64,000 nucleotides of DNA from Verrucomicrobiota bacterium. GTDB taxonomy: Bacteria; Verrucomicrobiota; Verrucomicrobiia; Opitutales; UBA953. The translations under genes and the position numbers were made by a program. The notes beneath the pieces are model-generated. The model had not been told where the DNA came from. It saw only the letters and a program-made list of their open reading frames with translations, and searched no databases. Position 1 is the first letter of the stretch. Each line of letters starts with the position of its first letter. This document shows, piece after piece, positions 2,239-55,477 of this stretch. The stretch lies in NCBI GenBank assembly GCA_015061905.1, contig SUVQ01000008.1, positions 25,867 through 89,866 on the forward strand. Direction: 5' to 3'.

Positions 2239-3864
2239 ATGAGCACGAGAACGCGAAATAACATTCTGATTTCTTCGGCGGGAAAGCGCGTTTCGCTGGT
2301 GCGCGAATTTCGGTCCGAGCTCAAAAAAGTTTTTCCGGACGGGAACGTTTTTACCACGGAAATGAATCCGGCAATGTCGCCGGCGGCGCAGGTTTCCGAC
2401 GCTTGTTTTCGCGTGCCGCGCGTGACGGAGCCCGGATACATCGACGCGCTTTTTGAAATCTGCAAGGAAAACGGCGTTCGCATGGTTGTTCCGACGATTG
2501 ATACGGAACTGCTTGTGTTGGCGCGGGCGAAAAAACGCTTCTCCGATGCCGGGATTTTCCTGCTTGTTGCGGATGAAGATTTCATCGCAACGTGCCGTGA
2601 CAAGCGCAATACAGGTGCGTTTTTTGAATCGCGAGGGATTCGCGTTCCCGCGGCGATTGACAAATCTGATCCGACGTTTCCGCTTTTTGCGAAGCCTTAC
2701 GACGGCTCGTTGAGCAAGGATTTGTTTGTCGTGCGTTCCCGTGAAGAGCTGACGCCGGAAATTCTCAATCACCCGAAGCTTATGTTCATGGAATACATCG
2801 ATAAATGTATTTATAAAGAATATACGGTTGATATGTATTTCGGGCGAGACAACAGGATTAAAGCGGCTGTGCCTCGGGAACGCATTGAAATCCGCGCCGG
2901 AGAAATCAACAAAGGTCGCACACGGAAAAATGTAATTGAAAAAACATTACGTGAAAACTTTTCGGAAATTCCGGGTGTCGTCGGTTGTATTTGTGCGCAG
3001 TTTTTTCTGAATGAAAAAACGGGCGACCTTGTCGGGATCGAAATCAATCCGCGCTTCGGCGGCGGCTATCCGCTGAGCTACGGCGCGGGGGCAAACTTCC
3101 CGCAAAATATTGTCCGGGAATATTTGCTCGGCGAAACTGTCGATTTCTCGGACGCGTGGCGCGATAACACGCTGATGCTACGCTATGATGCGGAAATTAT
3201 CGTTCCCGAAAAGCGCCGCGTCGTCGTTTTTGATTTGGATGATACGCTTTGCAAGGAAACGGATTTTCTGAAATCGGCATTTCGCGAAATTGCGGAATCG
3301 TTGGCGGGAACGCGCGGGGACGTTGCCGCCGAAAACCTTTTCGCGGAAATGCTCGAAATGCGTTCCCGCGGAGAAAATGTTTTTGAAAATCTTTCGCAAA
3401 AATACGGTGTTTCCGTGGCAAATTTGCTCGCGCGCTATCGCTCGCATTTTCCGCTCGGAATGAAATTGCCGGCGAAAACGCGCGCGGTTTTGGAAACGCT
3501 GAAAAATTGCGGCGCGGTTCTCGGAATCATCACGGACGGACGCTCGCTGACGCAACGCAACAAGATACGCGCGCTCGGCTTGAGCGAATTTTTTGAAGAC
3601 GCAAACATCGTTGTTTCCGAGGAATTCGGCTCCGAAAAACCGTCGCCGGAAAATTACGAATTTTTTATGAAAAAATACCCGGATGCGGAATTTTGCTACG
3701 TTGGGGACAATCCGAAAAAAGACTTTATCGCGCCGAACGCGCTGGGCTGGGAAACCGTTTGCCTTCTCGACGACGGCGGGAACGTCCACCCGCAGGATTT
3801 TTCCGCCGTTCCCGCCGCCGCGCTCCCGCGCCGAAAAGTGAAAACTCTTTGTATGCTTATTTAA
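2239..3864 (+). CDS. ATP-grasp + HAD-family hydrolase fusion
   Basis: N-terminal ~320 aa ATP-grasp (ISSAGKR, AKPYDGSLS, EINPRFGGGY); C-terminal HAD motifs VFDLDDTL, ITDG, KP, YVGDN. Confidence 0.85.
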   Translation: MSTRTRNNILISSAGKRVSLVREFRSELKKVFPDGNVFTTEMNPAMSPAAQVSDACFRVPRVTEPGYIDALFEICKENGVRMVVPTIDTELLVLARAKKRFSDAGIFLLVADEDFIATCRDKRNTGAFFESRGIRVPAAIDKSDPTFPLFAKPYDGSLSKDLFVVRSREELTPEILNHPKLMFMEYIDKCIYKEYTVDMYFGRDNRIKAAVPRERIEIRAGEINKGRTRKNVIEKTLRENFSEIPGVVGCICAQFFLNEKTGDLVGIEINPRFGGGYPLSYGAGANFPQNIVREYLLGETVDFSDAWRDNTLMLRYDAEIIVPEKRRVVVFDLDDTLCKETDFLKSAFREIAESLAGTRGDVAAENLFAEMLEMRSRGENVFENLSQKYGVSVANLLARYRSHFPLGMKLPAKTRAVLETLKNCGAVLGIITDGRSLTQRNKIRALGLSEFFEDANIVVSEEFGSEKPSPENYEFFMKKYPDAEFCYVGDNPKKDFIAPNALGWETVCLLDDGGNVHPQDFSAVPAAALPRRKVKTLCMLI

Positions 3865-3865
3865 A

Positions 3866-4603
3866 ATGGATAACGATAATCGATATGGAATATTGCAGGC
3901 TCATAAAGAGCTACTGTCGATGATGAAAATTCTTCATGACTTTTTAGAGCGGGAGAAAATCACGTATTGTCTCGCATATGGTTCTCTGCTGGGGGCGGTT
4001 CGACACCAAGGTTTTATTCCTTGGGACGACGATATGGATATCATGGTTGATCGTGAAAATTATGAGAAAATATTAAAAAAGTATCAGTCGTGTCCTGATT
4101 TAAAATTCAGAAAAATCTTATGGACGCTTCGGGTAGAAAAGGCTGGAGATGAAAAATCCCCGATGATTGATATTTTCGTTTGGGACAGTGTTCCGAAGAG
4201 TTCTTTTGTCCGAAATTTTAAGTTGCTTTTGATTAAGATGTTACAAGGAATGCTAAAAGAGAGGCTTTCTTTATCCGGAAATTCTGCAATTTATAAGTTT
4301 TGCTCGGCAGGAACGTTTGTTTTCGGACGTATATTTTCAACGTCAATCAAACAGAAAATGTATGAGGCTGTATCAAGACTTGGTAAGAAAAGCGGGCTAA
4401 TCTGTTCTTATAACTCGGATTTTAGAGATATTCACACCGTGCTTCCGGAGAGCTTAATGAAAGATTTTGTTAAGAAAAAATTTGAAGATGCCGAGTTTTT
4501 TGTGCCACGGGATTATGATCGTTTTTTAACGGCATTCTACGGCGACTATATGGTTTTGCCTGAAGAAAGAAAAAGAGTCCCTGTGCACGGGAACGGCGAG
4601 TAG
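3866..4603 (+). CDS. LicD family phosphotransferase
   Basis: GSLLGAVRHQGFIPWDDDMD and YDRFLTAFYGDYM motifs. Confidence 0.9.
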   Translation: MDNDNRYGILQAHKELLSMMKILHDFLEREKITYCLAYGSLLGAVRHQGFIPWDDDMDIMVDRENYEKILKKYQSCPDLKFRKILWTLRVEKAGDEKSPMIDIFVWDSVPKSSFVRNFKLLLIKMLQGMLKERLSLSGNSAIYKFCSAGTFVFGRIFSTSIKQKMYEAVSRLGKKSGLICSYNSDFRDIHTVLPESLMKDFVKKKFEDAEFFVPRDYDRFLTAFYGDYMVLPEERKRVPVHGNGE

Positions 4604-4701
4604 CTTCTTTTTTACCGAAAATATTTATGCAGAGAGCTTATGCGTTTTGTTCCGTCTGAGAAATAGAAATTTTGAGTATTGAAACTAAAGGCTAAATTTT
4701 T

Positions 4702-5784
4702 ATGAGAAACTTTACAGTAGGTCCTGTGGCAATGAGCCAAGATATATTAAATATTGGTTCGGAGCAGATTCCGTATTTTCGAACGGCGGAATTTTCAAAA
4801 TTAATGCTTGAAAATGAAGCGATGATTTTGCGCGCGGCAAATGCTCCCGCAGGAAGTCGAGCCGTGTTTTTGACCGGCTCGGGGACGTCCGGAATGGAAG
4901 CGGCGGTTGTGAATTTGTTTGATGAGGACGACAAAGTTCTCGTTGTAAACGGCGGGAGCTTTGGGGCGCGTTTTGCAGAGATTTGCCGTGTTTATGGTAT
5001 TCCGCACGAAGAAGTGAAATTGTCTTTCGGAAAACAAATTACAGCGAATGATCTCGCTCCGTTTGAGAATCAGGGTTTTACGGGCTTGTTGGTGAATATT
5101 CACGAAACGTCGACCGGAGTTCTTTATGATGCCGAGTTATTGTCGGCGTTTTGTCGTCGGAATAATCTTAAATTTGTTGTCGATGCGATAAGCTCTTTTC
5201 TTGCGGATCCGTTTGATATGTCGAAGATAGGAGCGGATGCGGTAATTGTCGGTTCTCAGAAAGCGATTGCGCTTCCTCCGGGGATTTCCGCAGTGTTACT
5301 TTCTTCCCGTGCATGCGAAGTGATTTCTTTGCGGGAACGTATTCGGTGTTTCTATCTGAATTTAAAAGAGGCGTTGAAAAACGGAGAGCGTGGGCAAACA
5401 CCGTTCACTCCGGCTGTCGGAATCTTGCTTCAAATGCACAAACGACTCTCGGGAATTTTGACAAGAGGTGTTGCCGAGGAAATTCGAAAAGCAAAGCGAT
5501 TAGCACAATATTTTCGGGAACGTATCGCCAATTTCCCTTTTGTCGTCGCATCCGAATCTTGTTCGAACGCAGTAACGTCGTTGCGCGTTTTGCCGGAATG
5601 TAAAAGTACTGCGTTTGAAATTTTTGAAATCTTGAAAAACGAATACGGGATTTTTGTTTGTCCGAATGGCGGCGACTTGCGCGATAGCGTTTTTCGCGTG
5701 GGGCATATCGGAGAATTAACGGCAAATGATTACGAGGCATTGTTCTCCGCATTTGAGGATATGAAATCTTCCGGAAAAATTTAG
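4702..5784 (+). CDS. Class V PLP-dependent aminotransferase/decarboxylase
   Basis: FTVGP, TGSGTSGMEAA, HETSTG, VDAISS, GSQKAIALPPG, FRVGHIG. Confidence 0.88.
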   Translation: MRNFTVGPVAMSQDILNIGSEQIPYFRTAEFSKLMLENEAMILRAANAPAGSRAVFLTGSGTSGMEAAVVNLFDEDDKVLVVNGGSFGARFAEICRVYGIPHEEVKLSFGKQITANDLAPFENQGFTGLLVNIHETSTGVLYDAELLSAFCRRNNLKFVVDAISSFLADPFDMSKIGADAVIVGSQKAIALPPGISAVLLSSRACEVISLRERIRCFYLNLKEALKNGERGQTPFTPAVGILLQMHKRLSGILTRGVAEEIRKAKRLAQYFRERIANFPFVVASESCSNAVTSLRVLPECKSTAFEIFEILKNEYGIFVCPNGGDLRDSVFRVGHIGELTANDYEALFSAFEDMKSSGKI

Positions 5785-5798
5785 AGCGAGGGAAACAA

Positions 5799-6275
5799 AT
5801 GATTAACGGGAAAACAGTAGTTTATACGTCGGGGACGTTTGATATGTTACATATCAATCATTTGAAAATGATTGAGTACGCGCGTTCGCTTGGAGACATT
5901 TTAATCGTTGGAGTGAATACGGACGAATTGGTTGAAAGCTACAAATCACAGCCGATTATTCCGTTTGAAGAGAGAATCGGCTTGATGAAGGCAATCAAAG
6001 GTCCGGATATTGTGATTCCTCAGCGGAGCTTGGATCACACGGACAAGGTGAAGAAACTTCATTTTGATGTCTTTGTCGTGGGCGACGATTGGGTCGGGAA
6101 ATATGACTACTTAGAAAAACTTGGCGTTACTGTTATTTATTTTCCATATGGGGCGGGAATTAGTTCTTCGTCGCTGAAAAAACGCATTTACGAAAATTAT
6201 GAGAAGTTGAAGGCGAAGGCGGACGGGCATTTGCCGATGGACGCAGATACGGGCGCGGGAACGCAAGGTGCGTAA
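5799..6275 (+). CDS. Cytidylyltransferase (TagD/glycerol-3-phosphate CTase-like)
   Basis: YTSGTFDMLHINH (HxGH-like), VGVNTD, VVGDDW, ISSSSLK. Confidence 0.88.
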   Translation: MINGKTVVYTSGTFDMLHINHLKMIEYARSLGDILIVGVNTDELVESYKSQPIIPFEERIGLMKAIKGPDIVIPQRSLDHTDKVKKLHFDVFVVGDDWVGKYDYLEKLGVTVIYFPYGAGISSSSLKKRIYENYEKLKAKADGHLPMDADTGAGTQGA

Positions 6276-6900
6276 AATGGACGGGGAGCTTGAAATAAGA
6301 TTTTGCGACGAGGTTTTTCTGCGTGAGCACGCGAAAGAATTTGCGGTACTTTGTCGGGAGGCGTTTTGTTCTCTTTTGCGCGAGAATATACGAGTTGCTG
6401 ACGGTTTCATTACCACCGATGAAATGTGCGCTCGCGTGAGAGGAAAGGAGCTATTGGGTGCTTATCTTGGCACTAAGTTGTGCGGTTTTCTCATTTTCAC
6501 GGAACTTACGAAAGTAAAGATAAAGGGCGGGCATATTGATTTGGTTGCCGTTTCTCCGGCGTGTCAGGGGAGAGGGATTGGCAAGTCGTTGTTAGAGACA
6601 GCAGAAAATTATTTGCGGGAACGCGGAATAGGGAACGTTACGGTCTGCACACCGGAAGTTGCGGCGAAAAATGTCCGGTGGTATTGCCGCTTAGGTTATG
6701 AGCCGCTTTGGCTTGGTCGCGGTAGTGGTAATTATCGGAGTATAGGATTCTATAAGGCACTTTTTCCCGATTTGAAAATGCGAAAATGGAGAGTAAAGAA
6801 AAGTTTTTGGGTTTCATCTTTTGTTTGCCGGTTGAGACTTCGAAGAGACGGCTCGGAGCGCCTTCCGGGAAAAATACTTAAGATTTTGTTGAGGAAATAA
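6268..6900 (+). CDS. GNAT family N-acetyltransferase
   Basis: Motif A VAVSPACQGRGIGKSLL; WYCRLGY. Confidence 0.8.
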   Translation: MRKMDGELEIRFCDEVFLREHAKEFAVLCREAFCSLLRENIRVADGFITTDEMCARVRGKELLGAYLGTKLCGFLIFTELTKVKIKGGHIDLVAVSPACQGRGIGKSLLETAENYLRERGIGNVTVCTPEVAAKNVRWYCRLGYEPLWLGRGSGNYRSIGFYKALFPDLKMRKWRVKKSFWVSSFVCRLRLRRDGSERLPGKILKILLRK

Positions 6901-7040
6901 AGGCAATTTTAACTGTCGGAAAGGGTTTCGCAAATATCGCAGTAGGAAGAGGCGGAGACTCATCTTGTCGTTCTTGCAGATATTGCTCCGTTTGCGTGCA
7001 GGAAATTTTAGGCAAAATCCGGATTTTTGAAGGGGCGTAA

Positions 7041-7140
7041 TTTAGTAGGTTTTAGGAACTTTTAGGTGGTTTTAGTGGGTTTTAGGTGATTTTTGCTAAA
7101 ACCGCCTAAAACTTGCTAAAACTGTCTAAAACTTGTTAAA
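7041..7140. repeat. 10-bp-periodic inverted array (5x TTTAG units then 5x CTAAA-like units), copy 1
   Basis: tttagtaggt tttaggaact tttaggtggt tttagtgggt tttaggtgat / ttttgctaaa accgcctaaa acttgctaaa actgtctaaa acttgttaaa. Confidence 0.95.
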
Positions 7141-7170
7141 TCTCCTGCAGTAACCCTTATTTGTTTAACT

Positions 7171-8367
7171 ATGGATCCTGTACGCAATCCCTTTTCCCCG
7201 GGCGCGGGAACGCCTCCGCCGATGCTTGTCGGGCGGGAAGAAATCTTAATGCAGGGCGATATTTTATTTCGTCGTATTTTAGACGGGCGCTCGGAAAAAA
7301 GCATGATGCTAACGGGATTGAGAGGCGTAGGAAAAACGGTTTTGCTGGGTGTGCTTGAGCGGCAGGCGAAAGAGCTTGGGTTTATGACGATATTTCACGA
7401 GGCGGGTGAGGATAGCCGTGTGGGAGTATTTCTTGCTCAGGGGTTGAGAAAGATTCTTTTGACGTTGGATTCGGCGGCTTCGATGAAGAAACGCGCGAGG
7501 AAGGCGTTGCTTGCGCTTAGAAATTTTGTGGGAACGCTTCGCGTGAATGTCGGGGAGTTCGGGATAAGTGCAGAGCCGCTTTTGGGATATGCGGATAGCG
7601 GGAACTTAGAGGCGGATTTGACGGAACTTCTTGTTTTAGTCGGGGAAGCGGCACAAGAACAGCGAAAGGCTGTAGCAATCTTCATCGATGAAATTCAGTA
7701 TTTTGAGAAAGAGGAGTTCGGCGCACTAATTATGGCGTTTCATCGAATACAGCAACGGAATTTGCCGATGGTATTGGTCGGTGCCGGGCTTCCGATTCTT
7801 CCCGCTCTTGCGGGGGAACTGAAGTCTTATGCAGAGCGTCTTTTTGCGTTCCCGAATGTCGGAACGTTGACACGGGAGGATGCGGTAAAAGCACTTGTTG
7901 TTCCGATTCAAAAAGAATCGGCCGAAATTACGTTTGAGGCGGCAGAGGTTATTTATGAGAAAACGAGCGGGTATCCGTATTTTATTCAAGAATGGGGCTC
8001 TCGCGTTTGGATAATGACTCCGAATGGCGAAAAGATCTCTTCTGATATCGTTGAGCAGGCAACGGAAAGTGTAATTGTTCGGCTGGACGAAAGTTTTTTT
8101 CGAGTCCGTTACGATCGTTTGACGTCCGGCGAAAAGGTATTTTTGAGATATATGGCTGAAATATATCAAGGAGTTCCGATAAAAATGGAAGAGATGGTCA
8201 AAATTGCGGGGAAAAAGTCGGGAACCCTGTCGCAAGTAAAAAGATTGCTGGAAAAAAAAGGTGTAATTTATGCCCCGCGTTACGGCGTGTTTGATTTTAC
8301 TGTGCCGCTTTTTGATGCTTTCATGCGGAGAGTGGTGCCGAAGCTTCCCGAAAATAGGAAGTTTTAG
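7171..8367 (+). CDS. AAA+ ATPase (ATP-binding protein, probable C-terminal winged helix)
   Basis: NPFSPGAG...GRE N-terminus, Walker A GLRGVGKT, Walker B IFIDEIQ, GYPYFIQ, FTVPLF. Confidence 0.85.
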   Translation: MDPVRNPFSPGAGTPPPMLVGREEILMQGDILFRRILDGRSEKSMMLTGLRGVGKTVLLGVLERQAKELGFMTIFHEAGEDSRVGVFLAQGLRKILLTLDSAASMKKRARKALLALRNFVGTLRVNVGEFGISAEPLLGYADSGNLEADLTELLVLVGEAAQEQRKAVAIFIDEIQYFEKEEFGALIMAFHRIQQRNLPMVLVGAGLPILPALAGELKSYAERLFAFPNVGTLTREDAVKALVVPIQKESAEITFEAAEVIYEKTSGYPYFIQEWGSRVWIMTPNGEKISSDIVEQATESVIVRLDESFFRVRYDRLTSGEKVFLRYMAEIYQGVPIKMEEMVKIAGKKSGTLSQVKRLLEKKGVIYAPRYGVFDFTVPLFDAFMRRVVPKLPENRKF

Positions 8368-8441
8368 GGACTTTTAGGTGGTTTTAGTGGGTTTTAGGTG
8401 ATTTTTGCTAAAACCACCTAAAACTTGCTAAAACTGTCTAA
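8361..8441. repeat. 10-bp-periodic inverted array, copy 2 (direct repeat of 7049-7129)
   Basis: 81 bp with 2 mismatches to 7049-7129; contains the ATPase TAG stop (8365-8367). Confidence 0.95.
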
Positions 8442-8544
8442 GCCCTGATAAAAGCGGAAAGTATTTCTCGGTTTGTTCGAGGCGCGATTTTTTTTCGCCG
8501 AGTTTTTAGACAAAAGCGGCGGGGCGTTGCGCTTTCGGGGTGCT

Positions 8545-24897: not shown

Positions 24898-26463
24898 TTA
24901 TTTTTGCTCCGGCGCGAAAGCGGAATCCGCGTCGAACGCGATATCGGAAATCTCGGCGTCGACGGCGTAAGCGTTCCCGATGTCGCCGATGAGGAAACTG
25001 TTTTTATACGCATCGACAACGGCGGGATTCGTCGTTCCCGACAAAGCTTCTCCGACGAGCTGGTCTCCGAGCCAAACGTAAAATCCGCCGGCGGTTTCGC
25101 CTTTCGGTTTCCATACGATGCGGATTTCCGCCGGGTTTTTTACAAAAATTTTCTTTTCCCGCACACCCGGTTTTGAGCCGTAGAGAAGCGTGTTTGTATC
25201 GTTCCAGTAAATACCGCTTTCGCTGACGAAAAGTTGCCCGACTTCGTTCGCGCCGTTCCCGCAGAAAACGCCGAGCACGTTGTCCGGGCGACCGGTTTCC
25301 TTCATTTTAAATTTAAACGAGAACGTAAACGGATGCGCGTTCCCGTTTTTCGCGTCGGACCAAGTTTGGCGAAAATCGCTTCCGCCCGGAAGTTGCGTGG
25401 CAAGAACGAGGCGTTTCCGGTTGTCGAGCTTCCAGCCGGCGGGCTTTTTTACGGAAGCGAGATCCTGCTGCGTTTCAAGTTTTTCGGCGTCGAGCCGTTT
25501 TAATCCGGCGTTGCGTTGCCCGACGCCGAGCACGCGCGCGATATTGCCGCCGACGATGAGCTCTCCCTGCGCGTTCGGGTGCGCCCCGCGCGCGGTGTCG
25601 ACCATCGAGCCGTCTTCCGCGAAAAATCCCTGCGCAATATTGTCGCAGGAAACAACGGATTTACCTTTGCTCCATTGGGCGGCGACGCTTCGCAAATGCG
25701 CGTTGTAAGCATCGTAATTGTTTTTCCCGTGTGTTCCCGTGCCGTTGTGTCCCGCCGTCGGGAGAAGTTCAAAAACGTGAACGCGCACCGCCGGATTGTG
25801 CTTCTGGTAGGCGAGAACGATGTTTTTGACGTGTCCGGCGATTTTTTCGTCGGATTCCCACGCGTCGTAAAGGTCGTTGATACCGATGAGAATGCAGAGC
25901 GTGTCGACTTTCTTGTTGCCGTAGAGCGATTTGTAGGTATCGCCGGTGTATTTTTTTAATTTCGTGCCGTCAAAAAAAGAATCGCGGGCGGCTTTTTTAT
26001 CTTTGATAAACGGGTTCGGTTGACCGAGTTTGAGCGTGACGGGACCGCGGTTTCGGGGCGGGTGCGCGGTGCCGGGATCAGCTTTGTAATCGCGTCCGCT
26101 TTCCGTTTTTTCGTTGCCGTGTCCGGCATATTGATAGGCGCGCCCGCTGGCGGCGGCTTCCGAAACGTTTTCGAATTTTTTTCCGCGATAATCCGGCGTG
26201 AGCGCGGAAACGTCGGTTTTCCACGCCGCGCCGCGTGTCATTCCCATGGGGGAAAATTTGACGTCGTTGTCGACAAAGGCTTTGAAAAGCTGATAGCGGT
26301 AGCTCGGCACGGGTCCGGCGAGATATTTTCCGCCGTTGGTGATGGAATCTCCGATGAAAACGATGTTCCCGGGATCGGATTTTTCGGGAGCGGCAAAAAT
26401 CGGCGCGGCACACGCACAAAGGGAACCGAGAAGAAGGGGGATTTTTTTCTGCAGGAGTTTCAT
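24898..26463 (-). CDS. Secreted SGNH/GDSL hydrolase with C-terminal beta-rich domain
   Basis: Signal peptide; VFIGDSIT, LIGINDL, GAHPNAQG; start MKLLQKK at 26463. Confidence 0.75.
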   Translation of the reverse strand: MKLLQKKIPLLLGSLCACAAPIFAAPEKSDPGNIVFIGDSITNGGKYLAGPVPSYRYQLFKAFVDNDVKFSPMGMTRGAAWKTDVSALTPDYRGKKFENVSEAAASGRAYQYAGHGNEKTESGRDYKADPGTAHPPRNRGPVTLKLGQPNPFIKDKKAARDSFFDGTKLKKYTGDTYKSLYGNKKVDTLCILIGINDLYDAWESDEKIAGHVKNIVLAYQKHNPAVRVHVFELLPTAGHNGTGTHGKNNYDAYNAHLRSVAAQWSKGKSVVSCDNIAQGFFAEDGSMVDTARGAHPNAQGELIVGGNIARVLGVGQRNAGLKRLDAEKLETQQDLASVKKPAGWKLDNRKRLVLATQLPGGSDFRQTWSDAKNGNAHPFTFSFKFKMKETGRPDNVLGVFCGNGANEVGQLFVSESGIYWNDTNTLLYGSKPGVREKKIFVKNPAEIRIVWKPKGETAGGFYVWLGDQLVGEALSGTTNPAVVDAYKNSFLIGDIGNAYAVDAEISDIAFDADSAFAPEQK

Positions 26464-50031: not shown

Positions 50032-50179
50032 GTGATAGGGGATGGTTGATAACGGATAGGTAAAAACTGATAACTGATAGCTGATAAGTAATACCGAAAG
50101 CTCATCAAAATGATTACGACTTTTCACCTGCCGGTTATCAGCTTTCCCCTATCCGTTATCAGTTTTTACTTATCAGTTG
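50032..50179. repeat. 7-bp-periodic inverted element (TGATAAC-type) at exbB/exbD junction
   Basis: tgataacggatagg (50047) pairs with cctatccgttatca (50148); supplies the exbB stop. Confidence 0.85.
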
Positions 50180-50803
50180 TTCCTTATCATTTTTCTTATT
50201 TTTCGCGATGGCGGCGGCGCGGTAAGAAAATTCGACGGCGACAATCATGTAGCCGAACAATTTGTTGCGCAGGTAAAACAAAACGGCGAGCGTGGGCACG
50301 GCGATAACGATGCCGAGCACGGTCGTCCAAAGTGCTTGCCCGATACCGAGCGCGAGGCGCGCGCTGTCCGTAGCGGCGTTCCCGCCGGAGCCGAGCACTT
50401 CGAAAACTTGGATAATTCCGAGCACCGTTCCCAGCAAGCCGAGCAGCGGAGCCGTTGCCGTAATCAGGCGCAAGGTTGTGAAGCTCCGTTTGGTTTTGTA
50501 AAAGTATCGATGAAAAAGATACGCGGATTCGGCGCGCAAATCGTCGGAATGGTGACGGTGTTTCGTTGCAATGTCTCGCACAACGCACACGAGCGGATTG
50601 TTCGGCAAAACGGACTCGTCAAAAAGCAAATCGGCGTTCCCGTCTTCGACGTTTTTGAAAAATCGGCGAAACTGAAAATCGACGAGGCAAAGTTGCAGAT
50701 AAATTTTTACCGAAAGAAAAACGGCAAGCAAAAGCGCAGCGGCAAGCGGGATTCCCACAGGACCGAGCTTTTCGTAATATTCGGCGCAGTAGTGTTGTAT
50801 CAT
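50159..50803 (-). CDS. exbB: MotA/TolQ/ExbB proton channel protein
   Basis: APLLGLLGTVLGII..F, GIGQALWTTVLGIVIAVP. Confidence 0.92.
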   Translation of the reverse strand: MIQHYCAEYYEKLGPVGIPLAAALLLAVFLSVKIYLQLCLVDFQFRRFFKNVEDGNADLLFDESVLPNNPLVCVVRDIATKHRHHSDDLRAESAYLFHRYFYKTKRSFTTLRLITATAPLLGLLGTVLGIIQVFEVLGSGGNAATDSARLALGIGQALWTTVLGIVIAVPTLAVLFYLRNKLFGYMIVAVEFSYRAAAIAKNKKNDKEQLISKN

Positions 50804-50833: not shown

Positions 50834-50911
50834 GAACCACGGAATACACGGAATTCACGGAAAGATTTTTTTTGTTCGGAGTTTCCGTGTTTTCCGTGCA
50901 TTCCGTGGTTC
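50834..50911. repeat. 9-bp-periodic inverted element (CACGGAA-type)
   Basis: gaaccacggaatacacggaattcacggaaa ... tttccgtgttttccgtgcattccgtggttc. Confidence 0.9.
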
Positions 50912-52344: not shown

Positions 52345-52436
52345 AACCGCGAATGAACACGAATTTTCACAAATTGTTTTTGAAGTATGTATTTTCAAAG
52401 ATGTTTCATTTAAAAACTTCGCGTTCATTCGCGGTT
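52345..52436. repeat. 9-bp-periodic inverted element (CGCGAATGAA-type)
   Basis: aaccgcgaatgaacacgaa ... ttcgcgttcattcgcggtt. Confidence 0.85.
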
Positions 52437-55370: not shown

Positions 55371-55477
55371 GTGAATAATGAATAACGAATTGAATTCGGC
55401 TTCCGCCGAAAAAAGTTCTAAAAGTTTTCGCGAAGCGAACGCACTGCGTTATTCGTTATTCACTATTCATTATTCAC
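55371..55477. repeat. 7-bp-periodic inverted element (TGAATAA-type)
   Basis: gtgaataatgaataacgaa ... ttattcgttattcactattcattattcac. Confidence 0.9.

Follow-up and report, generated by a model that had tools for sequence, protein, structure and literature searches.

Organization of the locus

We analyzed a 64,000-nucleotide stretch of DNA (the window) from an uncultured gut Verrucomicrobiota bacterium of the Opitutales, covering positions 25,867 to 89,866 of contig SUVQ01000008.1, in which a single gene for an AAA+ ATPase is packaged between two arrays of short, regularly phased units. The genome that holds the window is G000; the genomes and loci compared with it carry G- and L-numbers. The two direct repeats, at 7049-7129 and 8361-8441, differ at 2 of 81 bp (7057 A/G and 7104 G/A) and recur with a period of 1312 bp, and their similarity stretches to about 98 nt at 92% (7043-7140 versus 8355-8452). 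Each copy is an imperfect palindrome in which TTTTAG units give way to CTAAAA units at an exact spacing of 10 bp. In copy 1, TTTTAG starts at 7050, 7060, 7070, and 7080, flanked by degenerate units at 7040 (ATTTAG) and 7090 (TTTTTG), and CTAAAA starts at 7096, 7106, 7116, and 7126, followed by TTAAAT at 7136. Copy 2 has TTTTAG at 8362, 8372, 8382, and 8392, TTTTTG at 8402, CTAAAA at 8408, 8418, and 8428, and CTAAG at 8438.

The phasing is not expected by chance: the pattern gave 12 matches in the window and none in 100 dinucleotide-preserving shuffles. When we scanned the whole 2.08-Mb genome for palindromic arrays of 3+3 phased units of any hexamer, only both window copies and one degenerate copy on contig C9 were found, and the same scan of a shuffled genome found zero. 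The ATPase open reading frame (ORF) stops within copy 2, whose first unit supplies the TAG. Since three TTTTAG units at 10-nt spacing place a TAG in each frame, every frame that enters the array terminates. The ATPase is the sole credible ORF of the 1312-bp unit, which contains no transposase or integrase. A first-pass annotation, made from the letters of the window alone, had described the paired repeats, their self-inverted 10-bp geometry, the stop codon supplied by the second copy, and the lack of mobility genes, and all four descriptions held. The features of the locus are collected in Table 1.

Table 1. Coordinates of the cassette and its borders in the window
Feature	Position	Strand	Description
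Left junction block	6995..7048		Conserved, adjoins array; common to the occupied site of G010 and the empty site of G016
Upstream array	7039..7141	+	4 TTTTAG plus 2 degenerate units, 4 CTAAAA plus 1 degenerate unit; ends 30 nt before ATG
ATPase gene	7171..8367	+	398 aa, AAA+ with C-terminal winged helix, predicted Orc1/Cdc6-like fold
Downstream array	8352..8442	+	4 TTTTAG, TTTTTG, 3 CTAAAA, CTAAG; first unit is the ATPase stop
Terminator-like hairpin and T run	8466..8492	+	3' of the cassette; kept in the empty site of G016

The array is not a generic property of this genome, a possibility that we rejected since the 10/11-bp scan retrieved TTTTAG arrays only. Other periodic inverted repeats of the window (about 50040-50190, 50834-50911, 52345-52436, and 55371-55477) have a 9-bp period, with CACGGAA units, or an irregular one, and not 10 bp. 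These intergenic direct-then-inverted arrays at 50-55 kb, missed by the 10/11-bp scan, appear from their sequence to be a different kind of element.

The ATPase belongs by predicted fold to the initiator clade

The protein carries a Walker A motif at residues 49-56 (GLRGVGKT), a Walker B motif at D173-E174, and a winged helix-turn-helix (wHTH) at about residues 334-380. Its initial assignment as an AAA ATPase was borne out by a hidden Markov model search, in which Pfam AAA_16 scored 46.5 bits (cut-off, 32.6). Narrower models stayed below their thresholds. Pfam ATPase_2/Arch_ATPase (PF01637) reached 25.3 bits, under the gathering threshold of 33.2, and the NCBIfam Orc1/Cdc6 model TIGR02928 gave 23.3 bits against a cut-off of 181.3, with a match confined to residues 16-67. 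PADLOC v2 returned no significant match (best, mad8; E = 0.0013, 16 bits), and the one match in PHROGs was to a family without assigned function. In an alignment of 61 homologues the mean column identity was 74%; G49-T56, D173-E174, R223 (a candidate arginine finger), and a GYPYFIQEWG motif were invariant. A ratio of nonsynonymous to synonymous substitution rates of 0.07 versus a 90%-identical relative indicates purifying selection.

We then compared an AlphaFold model (predicted local distance difference test score, 89; predicted template modeling score, 0.85) with known structures. The top PDB matches by Foldseek, 2v1u, 5uj7, 1fnn, and 2qby, had a probability of 1.00 and E values of 1e-9 to 1e-10 over about 400 columns. 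Among the best structural matches were archaeal Orc1/Cdc6 proteins, including DNA complexes, human ORC4/5, RuvB, and the Arch_ATPases 2fna and 2qen, and the alignments spanned the full length, including the C-terminal winged helix. The family sequence profile also matches ORC4, at E = 5e-5. TM-scores were just 0.45-0.57, the highest (0.53-0.57 by query) being those of 2fna and 2qen; these modest values may stem from inter-domain angles. Between strands 71-77 and 167-173 the model has helices at 84-101 and 107-122 and a disordered loop at 126-141. These elements would be compatible with the helical insertion after strand 2 that is specific to initiators. Walker A, Walker B, and the conserved arginine of AAA+ initiators are all present, and the model has their base-lid-winged helix order. 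By its predicted fold, the protein is a member of the initiator/ORC-Cdc6 part of the AAA+ superfamily, with a shape nearest to the Arch_ATPases.

The same genome encodes a 400-aa classical Arch_ATPase/DUF234 paralogue at C5:24423-25133 (L013:3912-5114, minus strand). This paralogue is 27% identical over the C-terminal half and has no phased array upstream.

A phased array precedes the gene across phyla

Relatives of the protein form at least 8,000 sequence clusters at E <= 1e-20. Family members carry generic names only ("ATP-binding protein," "AAA family ATPase," "hypothetical protein"), and cultured carriers include Legionella and Meiothermus. We surveyed the 80 best genomic loci, which came from Verrucomicrobiota, Planctomycetota, several proteobacterial classes, Chlorobiota, Chlamydiota, Elusimicrobiota, spirochaetes, Binatota, and a Thermoplasmatota metagenome-assembled genome (MAG). 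All 80 proteins were about 50% identical to the window protein, and the protein tree was not congruent with taxonomy.

Within 140 nt upstream of the ATG, nearly all loci have 2-5 hexamers at 10-11-bp spacing, a short AT-rich center, and 2-5 inverted hexamers, and the arrays commonly end 6-30 nt before the ATG. By a strict automatic criterion, at least four phased units were found upstream in 56 of the 80 loci (70%), compared with 4% of shuffles and 9% of other pieces of the same loci; for at least five units the figures were 56%, 3%, and 2%. The hexamer core is TT-N-TA-N, with the lineage forms TTATAC (the commonest), TTTTAG (the window), TTATAG, TTCTAx, TTATTGG, and TTGTAG. Both arms always share one form and change together between lineages. 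When the arms are paired at the best dyad axis, complementarity reaches 84% at unit positions and 47% in the spacers. Phased units, and not a hairpin, are thus the conserved feature, which argues for a protein-binding array. Judging from sequence, the pairing of gene and array holds generally, across phyla, for a very large family.

Two loci of the survey have unusual arrangements. At L075:2460-5173 (also L089), two family members that are 28% identical stand in tandem, each after an array of the TTATAT/ATATAA type. In a Chlorobium MAG (L032, 3906-4026 and 5608-5731), the flanking repeat takes in the array and the opening 25 nt of the ATPase gene; its second copy lies 435 nt past the gene, with no second gene after it.

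The predicted recognition helix, with the consensus VTSLGPVRAKLIKKG, contains residue 354. Serine at this residue occurs only together with G at hexamer position 6 (7 of 7 Ser354 loci), compared with 7 of 39 loci with Gly354 (Fisher, 6e-5). On the tree Ser354 arose about four times, in the window's clade, Chlorobium, a Chlamydiae MAG, and Schlesneria, with at least two of these origins set apart by well-supported branches. Since G6 also occurs with Gly354, the link is suggestive and not conclusive. It is the sole residue-base link that survived inspection of the tree; the top protein columns by mutual information with hexamer position 3 (303, 91, and 351) were confounded by phylogeny and were set aside. 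The array is the family's upstream partner, its units and not its spacers are conserved, and Ser354 tracks position 6; together these sequence patterns are suggestive of the ATPase winged helix as the obvious binder of the phased hexamers.

The second array, and probable loss or gain of the gene within the genus

Of 18 further species in the genus, only 4 carry an orthologue. In G010 (99% protein identity) the order array-gene-array is found at the same site, and in G002 (81%) it is found elsewhere, with homology to the window that starts and stops at the arrays; the left flank in G002 matches another contig of the window genome. G016 lacks the gene: midway along a 245-kb contig, a single array joins the left junction block to the right flank, and this site aligns end to end, at 92%, with the predicted recombination product of the window's two copies. 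Homology at the left junction begins at about 7014 in G010 and at about 6990 in G016, and the sequence further left is replaced in G010. G011 has no array upstream of the homologous rubredoxin-like gene. In G017, an array lies exactly at the two contig ends of the homologous site, and a metagenome strain has the occupied form there; this case is ambiguous because a 1.3-kb contig could be lost in binning. The first-pass proposal of a single-gene cassette gained or lost through its repeats is supported by this patchy distribution, the one-array empty allele of G016, and the different context in G002, and gene and repeats are not invariant among relatives.

Among the 80 loci, a downstream array is restricted to the genus (by reading: the window, L019 in G010, and L020 in G002; the automated scan scored L020 only). 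Of the two repeats that had been taken as the boundary of the cassette, the downstream copy is therefore specific to the genus, whereas the upstream array is a cis element of the whole family. The duplication of the array to the 3' end would make the gene of this genus a deletable and perhaps re-insertable cassette. Up- and downstream copies within a genome are more alike than copies of deeper lineages (G002, L132), a sign that the two copies still exchange sequence. In the close group of G000, G010, and L134 all copies are 89-98% alike, and up/down and orthologous pairs are not discriminated. Losing the gene, and perhaps gaining it, by recombination between repeats is our best reading of these alignments.

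Perfect TTTTAG arrays occur in only the three genus genomes that have the window's ATPase type. Further solo arrays exist elsewhere, and those in G016, G013, G001, and G007 and on C9 of the window genome are degenerate. Their decay would fit sites that are kept intact only while the binder is present.

The C9 array (G000 C9:154384-154455; L012:3884-3961) has the same geometry, with three units, a 10-bp center, and four inverted units. It lies in frame within an ORF of more than 2,557 aa for a mobile-element polyvalent protein (ART-PolyVal, ddrB-ParB, LPD3), and the unit that would create an in-frame TAG is TTTGAG instead. G007 shares a 238-bp piece containing this array at 94% identity, and there the homology ends at the right edge of the array.

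In G017, the locus L017 (contig C81, 1337-1500 and 2741-2858) holds a 56%-identical orthologue with CTATAA-type units. Its right arm (36 bp) is repeated directly upstream of the ATG of the next gene, whose first 50 nt have a diverged counterpart in front of the cassette; the pieces duplicated on either side are therefore not colinear.

To the left of the window's cassette, positions 3845-7013 hold LicD-like, aminotransferase, cytidylyltransferase, and GNAT genes at 43% G+C. In G010, which is 98% identical further left, a single glycosyltransferase gene replaces this block. This strain-variable glycan locus thus differs between close relatives, and the array marks its edge. The window contains 3.2 occurrences per kb of the over-used octamer CGGGAACG/CGTTCCCG, whereas the whole 1.4-kb cassette contains two, and the cassette gene has 48% G+C versus 52.5% for the window. 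Both features are a mild sign of foreign origin.

Mobility and genomic context

Outside the genus the gene also stands between direct repeats, of another kind. Of the 80 loci, 26 are flanked by direct repeats of 19-507 bp with 82-100% identity. These repeats are host sequence (3' ends of neighboring genes, once a tRNA end), with the upstream copy before the array and the downstream copy just past the gene. At 13 of the 80 loci, spread over unrelated taxa, the array comes right after the 3' end of an N6/N4 DNA methylase gene ("...GDEVMKVFRV*"), sometimes in an intact gene and sometimes as a short fossil; two appear to be fused behind an unrelated host gene. Such fossils at unrelated loci suggest that the moving unit takes along a scrap of its earlier site.

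The neighborhood itself is not conserved, as no neighbor recurs in more than 6 of 79 loci. Those that do recur belong to restriction-modification and related functions: the methylase, HsdR, a UvrD-like helicase, Fic, and a DUF4143 ATPase. No recombinase is linked to the family loci or recurrent among their neighbors. The module does not classify as a transposon, insertion sequence, integron, or island: it has a single ORF and no recombinase, and its flanks outside the genus are variable host DNA.

We also looked for the gene on independent replicons. It is present in 95 of 72,556 plasmid records, and the best 40 of these 95 are all at least 58 kb, so that no small plasmid is among them and a mini-plasmid was dropped as a candidate. 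One unverified phage contig carries the gene. Three Logan contigs from public assemblies, of 1342, 1329, and 1331 bp, self-close with terminal overlaps of 30, 29, and 24 nt, respectively; the loci concerned are L131, L133, and L136. The break in the L136 contig falls exactly at the end of a 38-nt stretch shared by both chromosomal repeats of the same strain type, a position that points to collapse of the direct repeat in the de Bruijn graph next to a poorly covered, variable left flank. We counted none of the three as a circle; the comparison with the repeats was made for L136 only. A candidate empty site at L053 (Sulfuricella) was uninformative, as its relatives match only from the downstream repeat on and the left flank is unconserved. 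Single-crossover integration of a circle bearing a piece of host DNA would fit part of the data, and so would homology-facilitated illegitimate recombination following uptake of DNA.

Proposed mechanism and alternatives

We favor a self-regulated, horizontally mobile single-gene module, with binding of the ATPase to its own array as the most likely mechanism, and give this reading a probability of roughly 0.6. The 1.3-kb module would consist of an Orc1/Cdc6-like ATPase and its own cis element upstream of the start codon, the proposed operator and oligomerization platform of the ATPase. Each hexamer would be read by the winged helix of one protomer, and the 10-bp phasing would set the protomers on one face of the DNA, where their AAA+ domains could touch head to tail in an ATP-dependent manner. 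Oligomers growing from the two arms would converge over the promoter and in this way control expression of the gene itself. Within the genus, homologous recombination between the 5' and 3' arrays would delete the gene and leave a solo array, and the reverse reaction or DNA uptake from a relative would restore it. Across bacteria, the module would move as a single gene into unrelated contexts, often restriction-modification loci, and often end up bracketed by host duplications; as it has no recombinase of its own, insertion presumably proceeds via host recombination. Beyond self-regulation, a selfish or defense-island role is our most likely guess.

Several observations weigh against this proposal. 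By the strict criterion, 24 of the 80 family loci have a weak or undetectable array. The Ser354-G6 correlation runs one way and in part reflects phylogeny. The empty site of G016 shows presence and absence, not the direction or mechanism of an event, and the origin of the second array and of host duplications of up to 507 bp without a recombinase is not accounted for. The folding of the window arrays, which has a sense-strand bias, also counts against it: their predicted folding energies are -39.3 and -40.4 kcal/mol (z about -6), compared with -26.9 for the antisense strand, and their spacers pair through G-U wobbles, seven in sense and one in antisense. These values would suit an RNA or single-stranded DNA structure, that is, a 5' leader hairpin for translational control and a 3' element for transcript ends or stability, and across the family, too, loci with the more stable fold on the sense strand outnumber those with it on the antisense strand by 36 to 16 (p = 0.02). 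Yet a hairpin needs no identical units at an exact 10-bp phase, and complementarity in the family is concentrated in the units and not the spacers. Family-wide, G-U-type mismatches have no strand bias (11% sense versus 9% antisense), half of the arrays fold no better than shuffles (z > -3), and at many loci the ATG directly follows the last unit, as would fit an operator. We rejected a pure hairpin as the family-wide explanation and keep it as an unlikely rival for the window locus. An ATPase that is an ordinary local transcription regulator is held to be similarly unlikely. The second array would then be an operator of the downstream gene or genes, in line with the partial array directly upstream of the next ATG in G017 and with the rubredoxin-like ORF that follows the second array of the window, and presence or absence would be accessory-gene turnover beside the strain-variable glycan block that the locus borders. 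Outside the genus, however, there is no second array and no conserved neighbor, and a regulator that has only itself as regulon, keeps about 50% identity across phyla, and is bracketed by duplications behaves as a mobile module.

We consider two further explanations improbable. In one, the module is an integrated minimal replicon, with an Orc-like initiator and a double-array origin, whose 1.3-kb circle excises, replicates, and re-integrates by homologous recombination; the flanking duplications would follow from this cycle. Its predicted fold and domain order match Orc1/Cdc6, its array layout resembles oriC (Rozgaja et al. 2011 as cited in PMC5043065) and the archaeal origin recognition box (ORB), flanking direct repeats fit Campbell-type integration, and public assemblies contain the three self-overlapping 1.3-kb contigs, although none counts as evidence of a circle. 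Against a replicon stand the large size of the 40 best-matching of 95 plasmids, the single unverified phage contig, an AT-rich center of only about 10 bp, bacterial hosts without MCM, the repeat collapse that explains the L136 contig, and the score of 23 versus 181 bits with the curated Orc1/Cdc6 model. In the other, the arrays are attachment sites of a host or trans-acting site-specific recombinase (Xer-like or from an element elsewhere), with the ATPase as cargo or accessory factor. Arrays do sit at homology breakpoints, both at the left border in the window and where homology between G000:C9 and G007:C1 ends at the array edge, and tandem family members occur (L075). The array sequence nevertheless differs by lineage and tracks the ATPase rather than the host, the flanking repeats outside the genus are host DNA of variable length with no fixed core, and no recombinase is linked. 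A bolder extension, that the whole family of at least 8,000 clusters is an unrecognized minimal mobile element made of an Orc-like AAA+ protein and an oriC-like double array without a recombinase, we regard as a long shot. On the array, such a protein would fire local replication or pair array copies, and circles would be excised and re-inserted with long target duplications, as a one-gene episome riding on host recombination.

The pairing of gene and array gives a very large family with generic names a testable handle in the form of a predicted cognate DNA site per member, along with natural variants in specificity and a candidate residue that would determine it. The pairing would also offer a simple bacterial system for the assembly of an initiator-clade AAA+ protein on phased, opposite sites. 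Duplicated flanks, solo arrays, and the lack of a recombinase raise the question of how single genes move between genomes and phyla, and the frequent restriction-modification neighbors make a role in genome conflict worth testing.

Comparison with known systems

ATPases of the ORC/Cdc6 clade belong to BREX, Ssp, and HerA-linked defense systems (PMC12839542, PMC10853773). In the literature outside most subscription journals we found such ATPases in these systems and nothing on the stand-alone family or its arrays. BrxC, BrxD, SspC, and DUF499 proteins are from the same AAA+ clade, have a wHTH, and frequently lie in restriction-modification or defense neighborhoods. They work in multi-gene systems with effectors, whereas the family member is a stand-alone protein without an effector domain or a significant PADLOC match. 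Arch_ATPase/DUF234 proteins (PF01637; 2fna, 2qen) share with it an N-terminal NPF..G..FvGRE motif, a length of about 350-400 aa, and a patchy distribution, but the family protein scores below the Pfam threshold and is just 27% identical to the G000 paralogue, which has no array.

Iteron plasmids likewise have repeated phased sites, in direct and inverted copies, beside the gene of the presumed binder. Iterons, however, are 17-22 bp long and about two helical turns apart, their Rep proteins are not AAA+, and the best 40 of the 95 plasmid records with the module gene include no small plasmid. Solo long terminal repeats (LTRs) and Campbell-type integrants resemble the genus cassette in the gene between direct repeats, the single repeat in a relative, and the concerted evolution of repeats. 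The module differs from them in having no reverse transcriptase, integrase, or transposase, and in other phyla its repeats are host DNA of variable length.

The archaeal Orc1/Cdc6 proteins are closer in architecture, with an AAA+ base, a lid, and a C-terminal winged helix in the same order (2v1u, 1fnn, 2qby). Archaeal Orc1 sites adjoin the orc1 genes, and the ORB layout of polar sites inverted around an AT-rich center, directly upstream of the protein's own gene, is that of the module. Differences are the 6-bp cores at 10-bp spacing compared with ORBs of 13-35 bp, the marginal sequence similarity, hosts that are bacteria without MCM, and the location in an accessory gene and not at a chromosomal origin.

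At E. coli oriC, the assembly of ATP-dependent DnaA oligomers is directed by two opposite arrays of low-affinity sites that are closely spaced and phased (Rozgaja et al. 2011 as cited in PMC5043065; PMC13643167). Although DnaA binds DNA through its domain IV where the module has a wHTH, recognizes another motif, and is neither mobile nor non-essential as the module is, the two have much in common: an initiator-clade AAA+ protein with a C-terminal DNA-binding domain, two opposite phased arrays, and regulation of their own gene, which for the module is proposed.

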